This document shows, piece after piece, positions 23,830-33,587 of a stretch of 64,000 bases of DNA. The notes under the pieces are model-generated. The model ran no database searches, was not told the origin of the DNA, and worked only from the letters and a program-made list of their open reading frames with translations. The stretch comes from an uncultured Poribacteria bacterium (lineage in GTDB: Bacteria; Poribacteria; WGA-4E; WGA-3G): positions 3,424,001 to 3,488,000 of the forward strand of contig CATQHZ020000001.1 of assembly GCA_958296135.2 (NCBI GenBank), in the 5' to 3' direction. Within the stretch, counting starts at the first letter, position 1, and every line of letters starts with the position of its first letter. The position numbers and the translations under genes were made by a program.

Positions 23830-25541
23830 TTACGCGCCCGCAATTTGATGGATGCTATAGGGCAGTTGACAGAACGTGATGCCCATCGGAGTCAAGTCCT
23901 TCTGACTGAGGAACTTGTGTGCCGCATAGACGAACGCCTTCTTCCCCGCCGCCTTGCACTGCGTAGCAATCTGCACTGCACGCGTCCCGTCTAACGCCGA
24001 AGCATCGCTCTCCAAAAATTCAAGCCTCGGTTCGTAGATGAGATAGAAACGGAGCGTCTCGGTTTCCCCGAAAAAATAGTCGGCTCGTCGCGCGATAACG
24101 TCAAGCGCGCTGCCTGTCGCAACGTAAGCGATATAATTCGCCAAAGTCTCGTAAGAGGGCATCGTCTCGCCGGAGAGCATGCCTTCCTCGTCAATGGGTT
24201 CGCCCAGTTCACAATAGGTGAAAGAGCCGCCGAGGCCTTGCCGCAGTGCCTCGTTCTTGGCGGTATCCACACCGTTGATGACGCGCCGAACGCGCTCAGC
24301 GGTGATACTATCGGCGTAATCTTCGCACTCAATGAGGATGAACTTGCGGTTGCCGCCATCTTCTCTGTTGCGCGCGAGCACGGCGTGCGCCGTGGTGCCG
24401 CTGCCAGCGAAGGAGTCAAGTATGATATCATCTTGCTCTGTGACAAGCCCAACCAGGTCCTTGAGCAACTGAACAGGCTTCGGATAGTCAAAGGCTCTAC
24501 CGCCGAACACCTGCTTCAATTCAGCAGTTCCGTTTCCGCTGCTATATTCGGGTTTGTAAAGCAGTGACTTCGGCTTTTTCGTTGGCAATTCCCCTAGCGC
24601 GGGCCTCTGCTTCTTCCGCAGTCGGATCCCAGAGGGTGTCCTCTCAACAATGAGGTTGTGGGACTCGTTAAGGACTTTCTGCTTGCTCCACCGCCAATGC
24701 ACTTCTGCGCCAGCGGTAATCGGTAATACCTTTTCATAATTCTGGGTTTCGGGGCCTTCAACTACCGACAATTCATTCTTCTTGCTAACAAAGATCGGAT
24801 AGAACAAATTAGGTCTCTCGCTCCTTGGGGCACTTGCACCCGTGGCTTTCAGTTCGGCACCTTTTTTGTAGTACCCATAATCGTCTTGCAGCCATGACGC
24901 GAGTTCCTCCTCTTCCATGTCAAACTCGCTGATTTGAGCAAGAGCCCGATTTTTCGCCCAAGCGAGAGTGTACTCATGTGTCCCTGCGAATCCGAATTCG
25001 TTGTTGTTACCCTTGAGATTCATAACGGTCGGCAAGCAAGCGATAAAATGCACTTCACCGAAAATCTCATTCATAACTTGGCGTAAATGATGCACCTCAT
25101 TGTCATCAATAGAAATGAAAATCACGCCATCGTCGGAAAGCAGCTCGTGCAACAGATGGAGCCGCGGCCACATCATGCACAGCCACTTATCGTGACGCTC
25201 TAAATCCTCGACATCAATCGGCGAGTTTCCCGCCAGCCACCGTCGCATGAGTGGGCTGTTGACGTTATCGTTGTAAACCCAGTTTTCGTTGCCGGTGTTA
25301 TAGGGCGGATCGATGTAGACGCACTTGATTTTCCCCGCGTATTTCGGGAGGAGTGCCTTGAGCGCATGCAGGTTATCGCCGTGAATGATGAGGTTCTCAT
25401 CCAACGAGGGCTGGTTTACCCCCCCCCTTCAAAATTTACATTTTTTAAGGATTTGGCTGCATCTACTTCCAGCGTGCGAAACGGCACGGTAAGGTGATAG
25501 GAATAGATGAATTGTTTGCCTCTGAAATCGAGTGTGGGCAT
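23830..25541 (-). CDS. mod: Type III R-M Mod-family adenine methyltransferase, frameshifted at a G9 tract
   Basis: AAGGAG RBS plus ATG 25541 gives MPTLDFRGKQFIYSYHLTVPF...EGGG*; the body (IHGDNL, IDPPYNTG, YPKP, DSFAGSGTT) continues in another frame after the tract. Confidence 0.85.
25419..25427 (-). repeat. Homopolymeric G9 tract in the 5' end of mod
   Basis: Nine consecutive C on the plus strand; G7 or G10 would restore the frame. Confidence 0.9.
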
Positions 25542-25640: not shown

Positions 25641-26726
25641 CTAGGATTCAACGTAGCGAGTCATAGGGCCCCGGCTTTCAATCTCCGGCTGTCCTTGCCG
25701 TGCATAGAACGAAGAAAATCGGGCAACGATATCTTTTACGAAAGGAGGCGAGATTTGAATGCAGGGTTTTCCAAATCTCTTGGAAAATTCGTCCTTGCTC
25801 AGAGCTTGCAGTTTCCTGAAGTTGAGAAACCCACCATCAAAAAAACTAGTTTTTGGTAGCCAATGATAGTAAGTTGTGTAATTGTTACCAAAAACAGTCC
25901 GAAGTTTGTCTCTCTTCTTGCCTTTGTTCCTAATTTCATTCAACGCAGTGCTTACAATGTCATTTTCTCTTTCGATCTCAACGAGGAGAATACGATCCGT
26001 CTTGAAGTCACCGTTTTTTCTAAGCACAAGGTCGCAAGCTGGACTCAGAACGGTGAACCACTTATCATCAGCTGTCACAATGCTTCCTGTCGTAATCCTA
26101 TCCAATATCGGAGGAAATAGGTATACCTCTTCGGGAAACACTTGTTCAGGAAAGGAGCGTTCTCCCTCTTCCTCAAGAAGCTGTAGCAAATGGTTCAACG
26201 TGTATCGCAGGAGAGCTTTTTCGGTTCGTTCCGAATTTTCTTTTTCGTAGGATATCCACGTTTCCCGTTGCGGCAGGAGATTTTTGAGAAAGACTTCACT
26301 CAGCGTCTTCTCAATAATGCCTCGCCCTCCCATAATCCGAGTGAGGCCTGTGTTAAATATCTCCTGAAACAACAGAAGATCCGACTCGTACGTTCTATCG
26401 CCCCGGCTATACATCTTGATCACTGACGAATGATCTGCCACCAAATCAACAGAATAGCCAGTCACAAAGATAATGGGGATTCTGGTAAACGGATCGCCTA
26501 GTTGGCGAACGATCTCATTTCCGGCATCCTCATCATTTCCTAGCCTCAAATCGATAATTGCCCTATCATAAGAGCCGTCGATTTTTTTCAACGCGCACGA
26601 AGCACTTTCAGCTATCTCATATTCGACATTCAGAGGGTACTTGGCATTGAAGATTTTAACAGAGTCTTTAAATGCCTCTTGTTGCTTTTCGTCGTCTTCA
26701 ACGAGCAGAATTTTCATTGTATTCAT
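25641..26726 (-). CDS. Receiver-domain protein with uncharacterised C-terminal domain
   Basis: ILLVEDD, AIIDLRL, IFVTG receiver motifs; C-terminal VLSPACDL and FYARQG; ATGA overlap with the kinase gene. Confidence 0.85.
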   Translation of the reverse strand: MNTMKILLVEDDEKQQEAFKDSVKIFNAKYPLNVEYEIAESASCALKKIDGSYDRAIIDLRLGNDEDAGNEIVRQLGDPFTRIPIIFVTGYSVDLVADHSSVIKMYSRGDRTYESDLLLFQEIFNTGLTRIMGGRGIIEKTLSEVFLKNLLPQRETWISYEKENSERTEKALLRYTLNHLLQLLEEEGERSFPEQVFPEEVYLFPPILDRITTGSIVTADDKWFTVLSPACDLVLRKNGDFKTDRILLVEIERENDIVSTALNEIRNKGKKRDKLRTVFGNNYTTYYHWLPKTSFFDGGFLNFRKLQALSKDEFSKRFGKPCIQISPPFVKDIVARFSSFYARQGQPEIESRGPMTRYVES

Positions 26727-28894
26727 TTCTCTTCCTCCATTTTCGGGTGGAGTCTGAAATGCGCACCCTTTTCAGATTCCAAGACTTTCAGTTTAAGCCC
26801 GTTTCGTTCCGCGGCTTCACCAGCTATCGCCAATCCCAAACCCGTTCCGTCTGGTTTAGTAGAAAAATGGGGCTCAAAGATTACTTCACTTTCAATGTGA
26901 TTTGGTTCAATTCCTGGGCCGGTGTCGCGATAGTCAATATGAATCAAGGAATCTCCTACCGTCAAGAGTTCAATGCGGATTTTCCTCTTGGGCACATTTT
27001 TCTCACGCATCCAATAAAGGCTATTATCAACAAGATTCGTGAAAATCGCATAGATATCCTGATGCCACGCGGAAAATCTAAAACCGCAAGGATCTATAAC
27101 CTCAGCAGATACATTGTGAGTCTCCATTTCGTTTTCAAAAACGGAAAGCGTGCCCTCTATCGTTTTCTTCAAATCCAACAGCTTCTTGGTGGTGCGTTTT
27201 TTCGCGGCTAGCGGGTCAAGTCTGCGGAAGAGCTCTACGAAGAGCACCGCATTCTGCCATAAGCCATCGGTAATTGAAAGAATTTCTCCAAGATTCGCCG
27301 GATCCTCGGTTTCCAAGAATATTTCAGACCAGTACTTAAGGTTCGGTATCTGGTTGCGGAAGTATCCAAGTGGGTGCCTGCCTTCATGAAGAATAACATT
27401 GATGATTTTCCCGAGGGTGGCCTGCCCTTGATAAATAGCAACAGCTTTGCGGATTTCATCAGCAGCCTTGTTTTTATCTTCCTCGTCTTGATCGATAATG
27501 TCAATAATTTTGTCAGCGGTTATTTTGTCGACCGAGCCCTTGGCGAGCTGCATACGGACGCTCCGTTTCATCTCTTCAAACGAAAAAAGCTGTTGCAGAT
27601 CTCGCTCCACTTTGATAGCAGGACGGCTCAAGCCGGCCTTTTTTCTATAATCAAAACGCCGCCATTCAAGTTCTGTTATGACTTCTGTTGTGACTTCTTT
27701 CAGCCGATCGTAAGCCGGATTTTCCTTGAGTCCGTCCCGAGCACTCTTCTCGATTAAACCAGATTGATTTTCCGGCTCAATACCCACAAACCCAATCACT
27801 TGGTTGCTGCTGATGCGCTGTGTAGGATTATTGACACGTCGGCTATCCAATTTCATCCAATCAAAGCCAGCATCCCCTAGCGGTCTAATACGGAATCCGT
27901 TCCGATAAACACCGACACCGTTGTAGGCATTCAGAGACTGCCTGGCCTGGAGTTTTCCGACATAGTTACCGGATTCATCCTTGAGACCCCGCCGGATTAG
28001 GGACTCAATGGCCTCCTTTTCACGATCGTAGACTCGGATATCAATGTCAAGTTCACCACAGCCTGTTGGGGCCGTAGTGAACTTAATCTTTTCTTCCGGT
28101 ATGTTGCGAGCTTTCTGTGAGGAATAAGTCAGCGTGCCTTTACCGTCAGCATTGATGTGCCCGGAGATTTTGTAGTCAAAGAAATCGAAAAGCGGATAGG
28201 GCTCAATAGTTTCCTCAATGTTCTTCGCATCCGGAAAGCCATCAACCGTTAAATTGATACGGAATTCGTCACCGCCGTGTCTATTGCTGAGAGAAGAAAT
28301 CGCCGGTGACTTCAGTTTCTTCAATTCTAACTGAAGTTTTTTGAAGCGTTCCTGATTCCATTCAGCAAGAAGTTCACTACCTCCGTGTATCGTGAGCCGC
28401 GTTCCCTGCATTTCAGAGACATTCTCTGTTTCAACGAGAATTTCCACATCATCCAGATACTGCGCAGACTCAAAACTACTCCACTCAAGATAGAGCGTTG
28501 TTTTCTCTCCTTCAGGAGTGACTGTTTCAAGAAGCAAATCTGTGCCGAGAACAGATGCGGCATAGCGACCTACACCTTTACTTCCCTGCAATTTTCTTCC
28601 CAGAGGACTTCTAACCCTTTCACGCTTGTCTAAGGTCGATGGCACCATCCATTTGTTGATGACATCGTCCCTAGACATGCCATGTCCGTGATCGGAAATG
28701 ACGACAGTATAACCACTACCATCGGCAGAGGCTTTGAATGCTATGTCGACATCAGGAGAATCGGCATCATAAGCATTTTTCACCAACTCAACAACAGCCG
28801 CATAATTGTCTTGAATCAGATCGCGGCCGATAGTGAAAATGTGCCGTCCTGCAGGCCGAATGGTATAGGTTGTGTCAGGCTTCATGATTACCAA
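26723..28894 (-). CDS. MORC-like GHKL ATPase fused to a cytoplasmic histidine kinase
   Basis: N-terminal ELVKNAYDAD, DHGHGM, GSKGVGR; C-terminal LHEGRHPL, NLVDNS, DTGPGI, FSTK, GTGLGL; no TM helix. Confidence 0.88.
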   Translation of the reverse strand: MVIMKPDTTYTIRPAGRHIFTIGRDLIQDNYAAVVELVKNAYDADSPDVDIAFKASADGSGYTVVISDHGHGMSRDDVINKWMVPSTLDKRERVRSPLGRKLQGSKGVGRYAASVLGTDLLLETVTPEGEKTTLYLEWSSFESAQYLDDVEILVETENVSEMQGTRLTIHGGSELLAEWNQERFKKLQLELKKLKSPAISSLSNRHGGDEFRINLTVDGFPDAKNIEETIEPYPLFDFFDYKISGHINADGKGTLTYSSQKARNIPEEKIKFTTAPTGCGELDIDIRVYDREKEAIESLIRRGLKDESGNYVGKLQARQSLNAYNGVGVYRNGFRIRPLGDAGFDWMKLDSRRVNNPTQRISSNQVIGFVGIEPENQSGLIEKSARDGLKENPAYDRLKEVTTEVITELEWRRFDYRKKAGLSRPAIKVERDLQQLFSFEEMKRSVRMQLAKGSVDKITADKIIDIIDQDEEDKNKAADEIRKAVAIYQGQATLGKIINVILHEGRHPLGYFRNQIPNLKYWSEIFLETEDPANLGEILSITDGLWQNAVLFVELFRRLDPLAAKKRTTKKLLDLKKTIEGTLSVFENEMETHNVSAEVIDPCGFRFSAWHQDIYAIFTNLVDNSLYWMREKNVPKRKIRIELLTVGDSLIHIDYRDTGPGIEPNHIESEVIFEPHFSTKPDGTGLGLAIAGEAAERNGLKLKVLESEKGAHFRLHPKMEEEK

Positions 28895-30147
28895 TTCTCC
28901 CGCAATTTTTCCGCGATTTTTTGGGCAAGAATCACGGGAACTGCATTCCCAATTTGACGGTAAGCCGGTGTCCGATAAGGTTTGCCACTCTCGCTCTCGA
29001 AGTAATAGTCATCAGGAAATGTCTGCAGCCTCGCCGCTTCCCTCGGAGTGAGAGAACGATTCTGCTTAATATCCGGATGAATATAATAGTGGCCATCCAT
29101 CGCAATATGGGCGACGACGGTATGCGAGAACGGCAAATCTCCAGCGACAACCTTGAATCGGTTCACGAACGTTTCTCGGTTACGATGCGTTTTCAGTTCG
29201 TCAGGAAGATCGGTATATTTAAGGCGAACCTGTCCATCTTCCCAAAGGGTTACCGCTCTTCTATAAATCTCAAGATCGCGTTCGTTGTTGTAACGCGCCT
29301 GATGCAATGTCACCGGAAGTCCATCGTTTCGTATCCCTGCACCATATAACCATGCACTCTCACATGAATTCAGATCGCAAGGTCCTGCATCCCCTTCGCC
29401 GGCTTTGATAGGCGGCAAGTCCGAGAGAATGTCTTTCACGAAAATCTCTGGCGGACACATCTGTGGCTCTGGGTAGAAGCCACTTGATGTTCCTTTCTTG
29501 CCTACAAGAATAACTCTTTTTCGGCTTTGAGGCACCCCATAATCGTTCGCGGATAGCACCTTGCATTCGGTTTCATAACCTGCATCGCGGAATACAGATT
29601 GCATGCGGGATAAATAGGAATTCCCCTCTTCATCCTTGGCAGAACAAAGGCCCGGCACATTCTCAAACACGAAATACGCAGGCTCGTATCTTTTCAAGAA
29701 CTCAGCATAGAAAAGATATAGAGTATTCCGCTTATCTCCTTTCATCCGGTTCTGAGAACGCGCGCGGCCGATAACCGAATAGGTTTGACAAGGCGGCCCT
29801 CCAATAATCAGATCGAGTCTTTCGCCACCGAGTCGTTTATCAATTTGACAGAAAATATCCGTGAGGGTCGCCTCAGCAATTTCGTCGTTGATAACCGATT
29901 GGATGAGCTCTTCCGGAACCCGACTGTATAATTCAGAGCGACTCATCCGGTCTTCCAGATAAGCGGCATAGTGCTCTTCTTGACCTTCTCTCCTCAGCCA
30001 ATGATATGCCATCCGGGTACGGAGCGTAAAGCAAGCAGCCGCATCCATCTCCACATGCGCGATAGGGTGAAATCCGGCACGAATGAATCCTTCAGAAAGC
30101 CCGCCAGCACCGGCGAAAAGATCCAGAAAACTCAGTTCGCTGCTCAT
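28888..30147 (-). CDS. DNA (cytosine-5) methyltransferase
   Basis: DLFAGAGG, GGPPCQ, FENV, QSRKR, REAARLQTFPD, QIGNAV. Confidence 0.96.
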   Translation of the reverse strand: MSSELSFLDLFAGAGGLSEGFIRAGFHPIAHVEMDAAACFTLRTRMAYHWLRREGQEEHYAAYLEDRMSRSELYSRVPEELIQSVINDEIAEATLTDIFCQIDKRLGGERLDLIIGGPPCQTYSVIGRARSQNRMKGDKRNTLYLFYAEFLKRYEPAYFVFENVPGLCSAKDEEGNSYLSRMQSVFRDAGYETECKVLSANDYGVPQSRKRVILVGKKGTSSGFYPEPQMCPPEIFVKDILSDLPPIKAGEGDAGPCDLNSCESAWLYGAGIRNDGLPVTLHQARYNNERDLEIYRRAVTLWEDGQVRLKYTDLPDELKTHRNRETFVNRFKVVAGDLPFSHTVVAHIAMDGHYYIHPDIKQNRSLTPREAARLQTFPDDYYFESESGKPYRTPAYRQIGNAVPVILAQKIAEKLRENW

Positions 30148-30304
30148 AACAATTTACTCCAATTCGATGCATTTAGCACAATCTCGTTCAAACGCCGCCA
30201 AAATCAACCTGAATGAAGTCGTCTACGGCCATTCAGTTTTAAGTGGCTGTCCCGCGATAGCGAGGGCAGACGCTATATCCAATCCTCCGCGGTTTCAGAA
30301 CAAA

Positions 30305-30524
30305 GAAACTCGCCAGAATTGCAGTGTCGATTTTCAAGGAAACCTCAACCCTGCAAGTTGACTGCCGCTGTCTTTGGGTTACGTGCTTGGCCGCTCACAA
30401 GTCCGTGCGTACCTCCTTACCAAATCCGATGCGATGTGTGAATCCAAGTGCCTCGGTAATCCGAGTGCCGCCTAACACATGCCGACGGTGCCACGAACCC
30501 GTGCACCTCACACAACGCATTTAC
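30305..30524 (-). ncRNA. Candidate structured RNA, copy 1 of a tandem pair
   Basis: Shares ordered sequence blocks and covarying stems with 30534-30753; family not recognised. Confidence 0.55.
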
Positions 30525-30533
30525 CTCATGGAT

Positions 30534-30753
30534 GAACTCTCTGAAGTTGCAACGTCAAGTCTCCACTCTCGTGCGTTGCAAGTTGACTGCCTCCGTCACT
30601 GAGCTACGTGTTTGGATGCACGCACAAACAGCGCGTCATCCCTTACCTAAAACGATGCGGTGTGTGATTTCATGCACCTTGATAGCCCGAGTGTAACCTA
30701 GCGTAGGTTTCCGACGTTTCCACGAACCGGCGCGATTCACACAACGCATTTAC
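30534..30753 (-). ncRNA. Candidate structured RNA, copy 2 of a tandem pair
   Basis: Conserved blocks GCAAGTTGACTGCC, CCTTACC, CGATGCG-TGTGTGA, CCACGAACC, TCACACAACGCATTTAC (plus-strand reading). Confidence 0.55.
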
Positions 30754-30896
30754 TAACGACAAGAACGATTCAGTTCTCCCCGGGAGGAGAGCCCCCCGGG
30801 TCTTGATGGGTACGGTATCGGGATACGGATGTCCCGCCCACCGGTGAAAATGGCGTTCGCACTAAAACTGAATGTCTCTGACCTAACGACACACTA

Positions 30897-30996
30897 ATTA
30901 TACCACAAAATTAAGCGCAAGTCTAAAAAAACGTTTTAGCACAAATGCTATCGACAACGTCTTACATAGAATACCACAAAAAACAAAAATTTGCAA
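30897..30996 (-). promoter_or_regulatory. Two tandem sigma70-like promoters facing the RNA pair and the C5 MTase
   Basis: TAGACT-N17-TATAAT (30925-30897) and TTGCAA-N17-TATTCT (30996-30968), both with TGTGG before the -10. Confidence 0.6.
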
Positions 30997-31100
30997 ACAA
31001 AATTCGGAAAGCCTTCAAAGTCGGTTCACCAATCGGCTTGGACTCAAATGTTCATTAAGGCGAGGGACAGCTCCTCGCCCTACAGTGATATGAACATCAC

Positions 31101-33587
31101 TTAATGAATAATCTTAACACTCAACAGCGGACTATCCTGCTCAAACAACTTACCGTTAATCGTCGCAGTGCCACGGAAAGTAAACGTGTAGGTACCCGGC
31201 TCTAAAGAACCAAGTGCCTGCAACGGTACCTTGACTTCGGTTTCGTTCGCCGGGAGCGTCGCGACGGAAGTGGTGATACCTTCCGGTAAATCCATCGGCG
31301 TAAGCGTGACAGCATCCGTAAAACCGCCTTGCCGCACTACCGTCAACGTCAACATCGCCTCCTTTGACAGCACAGTGTCGCTCGTATCCTCTGGCGCATT
31401 AGCAATCGCCACGGTGTCGTTTTTAACGCTGAGGCCGGAGGGTTCTCCTGCAATCGCTGTCTTTTTGGGAAAAACGATGCTAAAACGCAACGGCTCTACC
31501 GTCACGATGAAAGGTGCCTCGACGATAGTCAGCGGGATACCCGGCGTGGATTGCTTCACCGGCACGCTGTTGATAGTCGCCGTTCCTGTAACCGAAATAG
31601 AGCTAGTGCCGGGCGTTGGCACAACAGAGAACTGCTCTCTTCGCTCAAAACTCCCGGCTTTAATGGTGAGCATCGCTTCGGTTGCGCCTTCCGCGAGCGT
31701 CACAGGCGCAGCGGTAACACGGTTCGGCAGCCCAACTACGGATAATGCAATCGGACCGGCAAAGCCGCCCCTGCGGTTCGCACTTACGTGAATGTCAACG
31801 GATTTGTTGTGGACAACGCTTAAGCCTATCTCGGCCAACGTCAACGTGAATTGCGGCGCGCCCATCACCGTGAGCAGAATCGGATCCGGCGCAGCGGTAC
31901 GTTCTATCTGTTGATTACCAACAGCACAGACTCCGACAATCGAGAGCGGCATGAGCCCAAGCGGCGCATCCCACGGCGCAGTTACCGTGAGCAACACCCG
32001 ATTTTGACCGGGCTCAACAATGGTGTGACTCAGGGCAAACGTTTTCGGGAGCGCAGGACAGGTTAAACGAATCGGGCCATCAAAACCGTCAAACCGGGTT
32101 ACGTCAACTTGCATCGTGACACTACTGCCACGACTGACGCGCGGATTATCAAACGCTGATACACGGTTCCGGGCATCTAGCCCGACGACGTTGAGCGCAA
32201 AGTCCGGCTCTAACGGACGGATGCTGAAGCGGTACGGATACGCCTCGCCACCCTGATTGTTGAGCTCTCGGATAGAGACAGAATAGGTGCCAGCCTCTTC
32301 AAACAGCCACTCAATGCGGGCATCGGACACCCCACTCGCATCATCGTCGTTTACCATCAAGACTTGTTCTTTTGCATCGCCCCAGGTTTCCATATTCTCA
32401 GCGTCTGACACCATGTTCTCGGCATCGTAGAGGGTGAGGAGCGCATCAAGTCGCGACGACAACTTCAGTGCATCAACCTCAAAAACGAGGCGTTGCGCGG
32501 CTCCAACCTCAAACGAAAACCTGTCTACATCTCCCGCTTTCTCAATCTTGCCGTTGAGCGTCATCGGTATCGTCACAGGATTCGCTTCTCCGCGCATGTT
32601 ATTAGGCTCAGTTTCTGACATCTCGGCTAAATTTCCGATGGCAAACGGATGGACATTCGTCGCCAAGCCGGAGGGAGTTCTCACGCGCAGTGCCCGCTCA
32701 CCTGGCGGTGTTTCCGCACCGATGGATATTTGGATAGACACCACCGTTTCAAGATTCGCGCCGCTGACAGCAATCGTATTCTCTGAGCCGCGCCGCCCAC
32801 CAAGCGGGAAAATTGTCTCCAGATACGGCAATTCACCGATGCTCAACCGATAGCCGTAACCCTCGCCGCCTTTGTAACGGATATCGCGGATGTAGAGGGT
32901 ATAGTTTCCAGCGGCCGCCGCGGTGTAGTCCAACAGAGAGTCAAATCCGCTGCCCATCCCACTATTGGCAACCTCCGTGCCCTCAGCGTTTTTCAGGACG
33001 AGGTACGAGTCAAGCAACGAGCCCATCCGCGCCGCTGTCACGTCACAGATAAGCCGAGCATCCTTTTCAAGGTTAAAGTTAAAAATATCTTCATCGTCAA
33101 TCGAGGCGATATCGCCGTTGACGGTGACCGGCAATTCAAGCCAATGATAGGCATCGGGCGCATCTACCGTTTCATCTTCAATTATTTCTGCAAGGTTACC
33201 AACCACAAAACTTTGCGCGTTGGAAACACCGTAGGGGGTAACGATGCGGATTTGCTGAACACCTAGCGGCGCACTCGGCGCGATTGTCAGGGCAGCTGTC
33301 AAACTCGCGTCGTTGGGGATATGCCCAGTGACACCCGCGCCATCAAAGAAGACTGCAGCTTCCGCCGTCCTCTCTTTAATCTCGGCTGTGATACCGCTCC
33401 CACCGAACCACAACGCTGTCGCCGCACCGATGTTTTTCCCTTTCAAGGTAACGTCAACGGTAGTCCCTTGTTGTCCACCTTGTGGGAAAACGGCGGTGAA
33501 TTCAGGCTGCACCTGCGCCCGCGCAAAACTGATAGTTAGAAAAAAAATAAGGAGGAGAATAGAGAACTGTTTTGTGAAATCGTGCAT
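31101..33587 (-). CDS. Secreted PPC-domain protein (planctomycete-type)
   Basis: Signal peptide, FPQGGQQG, EDETV/ETEPNN, DVDRFSF repeats; typical neighbour of DUF1501. Confidence 0.85.
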   Translation of the reverse strand: MHDFTKQFSILLLIFFLTISFARAQVQPEFTAVFPQGGQQGTTVDVTLKGKNIGAATALWFGGSGITAEIKERTAEAAVFFDGAGVTGHIPNDASLTAALTIAPSAPLGVQQIRIVTPYGVSNAQSFVVGNLAEIIEDETVDAPDAYHWLELPVTVNGDIASIDDEDIFNFNLEKDARLICDVTAARMGSLLDSYLVLKNAEGTEVANSGMGSGFDSLLDYTAAAAGNYTLYIRDIRYKGGEGYGYRLSIGELPYLETIFPLGGRRGSENTIAVSGANLETVVSIQISIGAETPPGERALRVRTPSGLATNVHPFAIGNLAEMSETEPNNMRGEANPVTIPMTLNGKIEKAGDVDRFSFEVGAAQRLVFEVDALKLSSRLDALLTLYDAENMVSDAENMETWGDAKEQVLMVNDDDASGVSDARIEWLFEEAGTYSVSIRELNNQGGEAYPYRFSIRPLEPDFALNVVGLDARNRVSAFDNPRVSRGSSVTMQVDVTRFDGFDGPIRLTCPALPKTFALSHTIVEPGQNRVLLTVTAPWDAPLGLMPLSIVGVCAVGNQQIERTAAPDPILLTVMGAPQFTLTLAEIGLSVVHNKSVDIHVSANRRGGFAGPIALSVVGLPNRVTAAPVTLAEGATEAMLTIKAGSFERREQFSVVPTPGTSSISVTGTATINSVPVKQSTPGIPLTIVEAPFIVTVEPLRFSIVFPKKTAIAGEPSGLSVKNDTVAIANAPEDTSDTVLSKEAMLTLTVVRQGGFTDAVTLTPMDLPEGITTSVATLPANETEVKVPLQALGSLEPGTYTFTFRGTATINGKLFEQDSPLLSVKIIH

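Follow-up and report, generated by a model that had tools for sequence, protein, structure and literature searches.

A recurrent structured 5' leader, possibly regulatory, before many unrelated and mostly defence-related operons in a genus of Poribacteria

In a window of 64,000 nucleotides from an uncultured Poribacteria bacterium (positions 3424001-3488000 of contig C1 in the source genome, here G000) a head-to-tail pair of related elements lies on the minus strand at 30300-30753 (copy A, about 30530-30753; copy B, 30300-30529), ahead of an operon of a methylase, a GHKL kinase and a receiver-like protein. We found that both copies belong to a family of structured leaders, each built of a sigma-70-type promoter (often two in tandem) and 170-220 nucleotides of leader, which recurs in the source genome and in two congeners (G001 and G002) before genes of unrelated kinds, most of them connected with defence. 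The copies change in a manner compatible with their common structure, they are oriented strictly towards the genes behind them, and they are conserved between the species. Judged from sequence comparison, the chance that the element is a cis-acting regulatory 5' leader RNA common to defence cassettes is about even; one leader before dozens of unrelated defence operons suggests that an exchangeable set of immune systems has a single control or docking element in common.

Copies A and B have 151 of 225 aligned bases in common (67%, with 11 gap columns), and a search of the genome by nhmmer with a profile of the pair recovered them at E 1.5e-71 and 2.5e-69. Iterated nhmmer searches of the whole source genome gave 8 full-length and about 5 partial copies, all of them on contig C1. 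The covariance model of the 3' module (R1, for module 3) detected 11, 9 and 15 copies in G000, G001 and G002, and that of the 5' module (R2, for module 1) 11, 11 and 17; with co-located modules counted once, this corresponds to about 15, 12 and 21 leader units, respectively. Outside these three species a single diverged copy was detected by R2 (E 2.1e-7) in G004, the single genome of a sister genus (g3). Since neither R1 nor the minimum-energy fold, which departs from the hand-drawn architecture, gives a module 3 there, only module 1 and the core GUAGUCAAC are claimed for this copy.

The distribution appears to be narrow in the genomes searched. R1 under default filters gave convincing matches only in G000, G001 and G002 among 39 genomes of the family, with one borderline match elsewhere (E 0.0245); no convincing copy was seen in 35 other genomes of the family, and under stricter filters 58 further genomes, of the same family and order, gave no match. 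When named genome records were scanned for exact matches to the module-3 core, 22 stretches came up; 11 were in two records of 'Candidatus Poribacteria bacterium' and 11 were singletons in unrelated taxa, roughly the number estimated for chance, and the host is accordingly most probably a sponge symbiont of the Poribacteria type. The module-3 pattern had no match in metagenomes or in viral contigs. The module-1 pattern matched at least 120 metagenomic stretches; 80 were scored with R2 (maximum 36.5 bits) and judged to be chance, and the five that were inspected, the three best included, read as GC-rich sequence, while the five matches in viral contigs were weak and at chance level. The leader may occur in a more diverged form beyond the genomes searched. 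Rfam 15 at the gathering score gave no match across the 64-kb window, and at E<=10 the region 30100-31150 gave two chance-level matches (18.6 and 18.5 bits, the thresholds being 60 and 100); no family matched, and none was recurrent, at six other leader loci. In the text portions returned by full-text literature searches nothing relevant was present on a common defence leader or on a Poribacteria RNA.

Alignment of the copies gives the order promoter, module 1, middle hairpin and module 3 from 5' to 3'. Module 1 is a 5' hairpin, GGUUCGUG-AACG-(hairpin)-CACUCGGACC, whose helix closes an internal loop and a variable hairpin. The middle hairpin, followed by AAnAC, had been drawn in the first-pass annotation as a covarying CUUG/CAAG pairing; a hairpin is indeed present, but the family consensus (columns 141-157) is typically of the GACGCG...CGCGUC type. 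Module 3, as folded by RNAalifold from 11 copies, has three stacked helices, P1 (AACUC/GAGUU), P2 (GGAG/CUCC) and P3 (UUGCAG/CUGCAA), with a near-invariant bulge of 9 nucleotides, GCAGUCAAC, between P2 and P3 in the 5' arm. The variable loop closed by P3 is about 9-30 nucleotides long, and inside it a further helix, P4, is possible in most copies (GUCGG/UCGGC, ACCGG/UCGGU, GUUGA/UCGAC, GCUG/CGGC). The invariant unpaired nucleotides are GCAGUCAAC in module 3 and UGAACG/ACU in module 1. The two modules are separable, since each also occurs alone, and several copies are truncated or lack one module. The subfamily of the window copies has an extra long stem that closes the 5' half (AUGCG-UGUGU with ACACA-CGCAU). 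In the leader of a 1081-amino-acid TmtA (L063:876-997 and L049, in G001/G002) two copies of module 1 stand in tandem, the second with GGUUCA...UGAACC for GGUUCG...CGGACC, a compensatory change in a duplicated module.

For module 3, 35 copies were aligned to R1; in this alignment, which is fitted to the structure of the model itself, there are 560 cells, and 94.8% of them are standard pairs (97.6% in P3). Sliding the 3' partners by 1-3 columns lowers the figure to 26-46%. Where only one side of a pair has changed, the result is mostly a wobble pair, as in CG:23/UG:11 at one pair and AU:25/GU:8 at the next. Module 1 was examined on 23 copies with a MAFFT alignment and a supplied structure: 90.1% of the cells are paired, as against 85.3 +/- 1.0 in shuffles and 15-58% in slid versions, both sides are changed in 17 cells as against 7.4 in shuffles, and the covariation score is 0.272 as against 0.179, each of these three values being reached by 0 of 500 shuffles of these related copies. 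In the module-1 helix itself the paired cells amount to 94.6%, with GC, GU, AU and UA all represented among the outer pairs. The long stem was recovered by RNAalifold from seven subfamily members, with both-side changes at 2 of 10 pairs. As a conserved aptamer-type fold the element is a candidate only: in sequences from 3-4 related genomes its stems are kept in 90-95% of cells, with module 1 beating its controls and few both-side changes in module 3.

The strand of the pairing can be judged from the mismatches, because without selection transitions in a pair yield G-U or A-C equally. G-U cells exceed A-C cells by 54:18 in module 3 and by 61:7 in module 1 (38:7 without one invariant U-G pair, which contributes 23 of the 61), and this excess supports pairing on the sense (minus) strand. 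Furthermore, the arms of P3 stay paired although their spacing varies from about 9 to 30 nucleotides, which fits an RNA hairpin and would be awkward for a fixed, dimeric DNA operator. Much of what the first-pass annotation had noticed in the two window copies was borne out by the comparison of many: two diverged tandem copies that are candidates for structured RNA on the minus strand, the long stem, the pairing of GGUUCG with CGGAUU or CGGGCU (now the family-wide module-1 helix), the 3' hairpin around a variable loop (now P3) and the G-U bias all reappear, no common reading frame exists (loop indels break the frame and no peptide is conserved), and the family that it could not recognise has no match in Rfam either.

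The genes behind the leaders were classified with Pfam and PADLOC and belong to more than 20 unrelated protein families, mostly of defence. At E<=1e-5 PADLOC matched 22 of 27 first downstream genes and 12 of 40 control open reading frames (ORFs), the two longest from each of 20 random 6-kb regions of G000 (L218-L237); the Fisher p of 4.9e-5 overstates the difference, because orthologous loci were counted separately. Several type IIG/III restriction-modification (RM) enzymes, mad3, MzaA and HmaB are among the control matches, an unusually dense defence repertoire. Followed with covariance models and gene context, the element thus turned out to be a lineage-restricted family before many defence operons, and its proposed link to the methylase-kinase operon of the window had to be given up, because homologues head more than 20 unrelated operons in three genomes. 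The genes and operons headed by a leader are as follows.

G000: the DrmMII-like C5 methylase operon (window)
G000: HerA with a 530-amino-acid partner
G000: FRG-TPR(-Mrr_N) proteins (PDC-S15), three times
G000: an HSDR_N protein
G000: a ParB_N, ParB-HTH and MBL-fold trio
G000: an HSDR_N_2 coiled-coil protein
G000: TmtA (Tiamat)
G000: an NsnB/AriA-like ATPase
G000: CARF-HEPN Csx1
G000: a type I-like methylase with DUF4145 and an S subunit
G000: a CBASS 4TM effector fragment
Congeners: PbeA and PbeC
Congeners: HATPase_c_3 and a partner
Congeners: two more TmtA types
Congeners: HKD-Snf2
Congeners: GmrSD/HEC-06
Congeners: HSDR_N_2-tubulin and a helicase
Congeners: SspD, HNH, cyclase, phospholipase and cyclase (two CBASS cyclases)
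Congeners: nSTAND1 with HEPN
Congeners: MTase_I and S
Congeners: Dsr1 (E 2.5e-209)
Congeners: a Sel1-trypsin protein
Congeners: a Gp49/HI1420 pair
Congeners: SNase
G004 (sister genus), L256:1272-11699: a Druantia-like operon of DruF, DruC-like, DruL and DruE (E = 0) behind the diverged leader

All 35 module-3 copies are upstream of an ORF and directed into it, four of them via a second leader copy, and the true start codons, each with its own Shine-Dalgarno (SD) sequence, lie about 14-155 nucleotides beyond module 3. A terminator scan of 30000-31150 gave no terminator-like site, and an untranslated region (UTR) is therefore favoured over a free small RNA (sRNA). The promoter, TTGACA-N17-TGTGGTATAAT, has 215 matches in the G000 genome, tRNA genes included, and is the general promoter consensus of this genome; initiation thus looks constitutive, and any specific control should lie after it. 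An upstream DNA motif, GTTGATGnCGTAT, precedes some of the promoters, and it was set aside as not specific in this genome. Adjacency to tRNA genes was likewise rejected as a general feature, since apart from the PLD-SNF2 locus just one other copy has such a gene, within 2 kb. At the PLD-SNF2 locus tRNA-Thr and tRNA-Phe stand about 220 nucleotides upstream of the leader in both congeners (L051:7127-7277 and L062:4233-4383), and this pair is a possible island integration site.

Between species the leader was compared with the third codon positions of the genes behind it, in the orthologue comparisons listed here.

Window versus G001, copy A: 90%; third codon position 76.6%
Window versus G001, copy B: 84%; third codon position 76.6%
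Window versus G001, rest of the 5' UTR: 135/149 (91%); third codon position 76.6%
TmtA, G0 versus G1: leader 91.5%; third codon position 62.8%
TmtA, G0 versus G2: leader 89.7%; third codon position 59.4%
PLD-SNF2: leader 94.9%; third codon position 73.6%
FRG: leader 88.1%; third codon position 66.5%
MTase_I: leader 78.7%; third codon position 48.9%
NsnB: leader 74.3%; third codon position 73.0%
Second TmtA type (partial): leader 81.1%; third codon position 88.9%

Leader identity is above that of third codon positions in six of the eight comparisons, and just two positions separate module 3 of copy A from its orthologue. At most loci, as far as these alignments reach, the leader is more constrained than synonymous sites and often more than the protein itself.

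While the leader stays, the genes behind it are exchanged. The G000 locus 3056 (L011) and a locus of G002 (L048) have both flanks in common (90% and 79% identity) and carry the same leader subtype; L011 holds two leaders and the ParB-like trio, and L048 three leaders that head HATPase_c_3 with its partner and PbeA+PbeC. The HerA locus of G000 (L009) and a G001 locus with ParA-like genes (L066) likewise have common flanks and a common leader before different genes, with the breakpoint inside the loop of module 3. In L012:7125-9491 and L054:1531-4347, from two species, the same leader and the same N-terminal HSDR_N_2 domain are followed by a coiled coil and by Tubulin_2, respectively, which suggests domain swapping behind a constant N-terminus.

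At the window locus itself the following features were assigned, all on the minus strand.

30968..30996: distal sigma-70-like promoter; -35 TTGCAA 30996-30991, 17-nucleotide spacer, TG-extended -10 TATTCT 30973-30968
30897..30925: proximal sigma-70-like promoter; TAGACT, 17 nucleotides, TG, TATAAT; 10 of 12 matches in the promoter scan
30754..30882: inserted short repeat of 129 nucleotides, outside the leader; separates copy A from the proximal promoter and has the direct repeat GTCGTTAG on either side
30530..30753: leader copy A; R1 78.9 bits, R2 E 4e-7, pair nhmmer profile
Copy A, parts: closing stem 30739-30749 with 30655-30665; module 1 30684-30728; module-2 (middle) hairpin 30619-30635; module 3 30529-30617
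30300..30529: leader copy B; R1 75.8 bits, R2 E 2.2e-9
Copy B, parts: module 1 inside 30450-30507; module 3 30301-30392; module 2 degenerate
30148..30299: remaining 5' UTR to the start codon, with a palindrome of the repetitive extragenic (REP) type and a hairpin
28888..30147: gene 1, C5 cytosine DNA methyltransferase, DrmMII-like; Pfam DNA_methylase 1.7e-58, PADLOC DrmMII 7.9e-164
26723..28894: gene 2, GHKL ATPase N-domain (BbrUII/HgiDII-like) fused to a histidine-kinase core
25641..26726: gene 3, weak N-terminal receiver-domain match; Pfam Response_reg 6.4e-5, under the curated cut-off

The first-pass annotation had placed two promoters at 30897-30996, and the proximal one is confirmed by the scan and kept in the G001 orthologue, where it stands directly before copy A. 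The distal one was read only by eye, with 8 of 12 matches and under the threshold of the scan; its layout, T-rich/TTGCAA/TGTGGTATnCT, is that of the promoters at other leader copies. The 129-nucleotide insert between promoter and leader has terminal inverted ATTCAGTT/AACTGAAT and a direct repeat of 8 nucleotides; it is missing from the aligned G001 locus, and about 25 partial relatives are dispersed in the G000 genome. The middle hairpin of copy B is degenerate relative to its G001 orthologue. The locus is flanked, at 31055-31085 and 30240-30275, by GC-rich palindromes of the REP kind (GTAGGGCGAGG...CCCTCGCC type), which have many sites genome-wide and dominate the repeated 20-mers of G000.

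Gene 2 was assigned from the Pfam domains HATPase_c_3 and HATPase_c, its NCBIfam matches being partial. The three-gene operon (25641-30147) is also present in G001, it matched no complete known system in PADLOC, and we regard it as a candidate uncharacterised defence system. Just downstream, at 23830-25404 (minus strand), there is a type III-like N6/N4 DNA methyltransferase (PADLOC MTase_III 5.6e-147). Neighbouring genes with the Pfam domains DUF1501, PSCyt2 and PSD1 fit a host from the Planctomycetes-Verrucomicrobia-Chlamydiae (PVC) group, with which these domains are associated.

If the element is a regulatory leader, we would expect it to act in cis after the start of transcription, on elongation (in an antitermination-like manner), on RNA stability or on processing. 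A shared trans factor, either a protein or a small ligand, would recognise the invariant unpaired nucleotides GCAGUCAAC and UGAACG/ACU, so that many defence cassettes would answer to one signal, and the tandem pair of the window might provide two checkpoints in series and a tighter control. Because the leader stays while genes are exchanged, it would at the same time form the constant upstream border of defence hot spots. A bolder version, in our estimate unlikely, makes the leader an infection-responsive sensor RNA which would place an exchangeable arsenal under one post-initiation signal while the same sequence serves as a homologous socket ('immune regulon plus landing pad'); the regulatory and the socket readings are mutually compatible.

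Several observations weigh against a regulatory leader. The folding energies of copies A and B taken singly are no better than those of shuffles (z = 0.17 and -0.82), so that structural support must come from the comparison of copies, and the P4 loop hairpins, which form in most copies, have energies no better than shuffles either (mean z -0.45). Besides the fitted alignment of module 3, its both-side changes, at 5 of 16 pairs, were reached by 30 of 500 shuffles, and true covariation is sparse there because the stems are so conserved. The structural sequences come from 3-4 related genomes only and include orthologues and local duplicates, and owing to this relatedness the shuffle tests overstate the support. 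Nor did an expression platform come to light, since a terminator/antiterminator pair is absent and both the real SD and the start codon lie outside module 3; the classic riboswitch platforms, which would need a terminator or a module 3 on the real ribosome-binding site (RBS), are therefore missing. In two of the eight orthologue comparisons the leader is not above synonymous sites (74.3 versus 73.0 and 81.1 versus 88.9). The enrichment of defence genes is real but less extreme than it looks, since G000 is itself very defence-rich (12 of 40 controls), and some leader-headed genes do not look like defence, namely LRR+sulfatases, ParA-like genes, a TPR protein followed by NADH dehydrogenase genes and SNase adjoining GH95, with some families unassigned. 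Finally, high conservation with swapped cassettes is equally what a recombination substrate would show.

This last point belongs to an explanation at the level of DNA, in which the promoters and some 200 bp form a cassette head that serves as a homology socket for the homologous recombination of cassettes, the RNA folds being incidental or secondary. It is possible, though we place it on the unlikely side. The syntenic loci with conserved flanks, the same leader subtype and different genes (L011/L048, L009/L066, L012/L054) would follow from it directly, copies resemble their neighbours in the same locus more than those of other loci, and the leaders often surpass in conservation even the first and second codon positions of the downstream genes. 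However, recombination alone leaves unexplained the excess of G-U over A-C, the compensatory changes in module 1 and the long stem, the stems kept around loops of very different length and the invariant unpaired nucleotides amid varying flanking positions; moreover, no recombinase or second conserved border turned up, for neither of which a systematic search was made. By contrast, a non-functional dispersed repeat, or decayed coding sequence, that carries a promoter by chance is hardly tenable: other short repeats are dispersed in this genome and several copies are truncated or lack a module, but conservation above synonymous sites, structure-compatible substitutions, strict orientation towards genes and the want of a shared reading frame all speak against it.

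Free-standing trans-acting sRNAs (regulators, guides or antitoxins) with their own promoters, ending before the genes, are in our view quite improbable. Strong promoters do stand directly upstream, tandem copies without a gene between them occur at the window, the 3056 locus and L060, the variable P4 loops could carry specificity, and AbiF/RCd22 (PMC12373285) offers the precedent of a tandem-motif antitoxin RNA before a defence gene. Nevertheless, the scan at the window locus gave no terminator-like site between element and gene, all 35 copies (35 of 35) are strictly co-oriented with and adjoin a downstream gene, and among the stretches scored the core motifs have no viral or metagenomic match beyond chance. 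The downstream proteins are mutually unrelated, which makes a protein-specific antitoxin or guide partner implausible, and of the roles offered by the first-pass annotation the guide and the specific RNA antitoxin are therefore unlikely, while the riboswitch-like one survives, and is preferred, as a structured and perhaps protein-bound regulatory leader, though its expression platform was not found. A discrete RNA of about 200 nucleotides ending at GAGUUUAUUCG, if found, would favour an sRNA or attenuator. It may be added that outside the window, at G000:C1:255053-255114 (minus strand), the 5' end of an mRNA made from a strong promoter runs antisense to the core of module 3 over 14 of 15 bases (UUGCAAGUUGACUACC); this could be a trans partner or a coincidence, about 0.4 such matches being expected by chance.

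Module 3 might also be read as the RBS of a short upstream ORF (uORF) whose leader peptide controls the operon, since GGAGG (or a one-base variant), an 8-nucleotide spacer and UUG occur in 35 of 35 copies and P2 pairs the SD-like GGAG with CUCC. We give this very little credence and reject it, because the ORF from UUG varies in length between 1 and 87 codons and conserves neither a peptide nor a stop position; in four copies the second codon is a stop, and loop indels break the frame.

Some known classes of element were also considered and set aside. The Poribacteria-1 RNA motif, an Rfam family, is likewise a multi-copy structured RNA candidate from this candidate phylum, but no Rfam family matched the window or six other leader loci, and a full-text search for the name gave no paper. 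No RVT domain, as expected of a retron or DRT, is present in the window operon or in the other annotated downstream genes. A CRISPR leader or repeat was rejected, as the sole array-like repeat that was found is unrelated in sequence to the leader; it lies outside the window, at G000:C1:3642843-3645210, with a 37-nucleotide repeat (GTTTCAATCTCGTYATCGAGAGGCTTTTCAGTTCAGG) spaced by 72-75 nucleotides.

Among known systems the element most resembles the leaders of the riboswitch and T-box type. With these it has in common a promoter of constitutive type followed by a long structured 5' UTR, invariant internal-loop nucleotides amid variable stems and loops, and many copies per genome, occasionally in tandem, that head functionally related operons. 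In contrast to them, no terminator/antiterminator or SD-sequestering platform was found here and no ligand or tRNA partner is known, the two modules are also found singly, the regulon consists of immune genes and not of a metabolic pathway, and the distribution covers one genus plus one sister-genus copy among the genomes searched. By this comparison it would not be filed among these families, for all its likeness to them, as it lacks a recognisable platform.

Processive antitermination RNAs, such as put of phage HK022 and EAR of Bacillus, are alike in concept only, being cis-acting structured RNAs after a strong promoter with no platform of their own that could aid long foreign operons; the leader, however, matches no Rfam family. 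The platform of an integron consists of the Pc promoter and attI, followed by cassettes with attC. The leader is similar to it in being a constant promoter-bearing head before swappable cassettes, many of them for defence, with head-cassette arrays at L048; unlike in an integron, the units are dispersed on the chromosome with one head per cassette, and no attC-like 3' site or integrase is among the annotated genes, although no dedicated search was made. RCd22, of the abiF motif in Clostridioides difficile, is reported to be a type III-like antitoxin RNA that binds and neutralises one cognate protein family (PMC12373285). The likeness to abiF/RCd22 is one of position only, two tandem structured motifs standing directly before an anti-phage gene. 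Type III toxin-antitoxin and abiF RNAs have one cognate toxin, whereas the present leader stands before more than 20 unrelated protein families and has no Rfam match.

The enrichment of defence in sponge symbionts is the subject of PMC5099237 and PMC5649159, and our finding bears on the upkeep and renewal of very large defence repertoires in such symbionts. Since the leader would mark defence hot spots, the uncharacterised genes behind it are candidate defence systems; these include the C5-methylase/GHKL-kinase/receiver operon of the window, the 549- and 530-amino-acid proteins and the ParB-like trio. The regulators of defence systems that we know of are proteins encoded beside single systems. 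If the regulatory reading is true, one leader for Tiamat, Dsr1, CBASS, Pbe, RM, GmrSD, HerA, CARF-HEPN, Druantia and operons of unknown kind would provide a direct handle on the coordinated control of dozens of defence systems within one cell.

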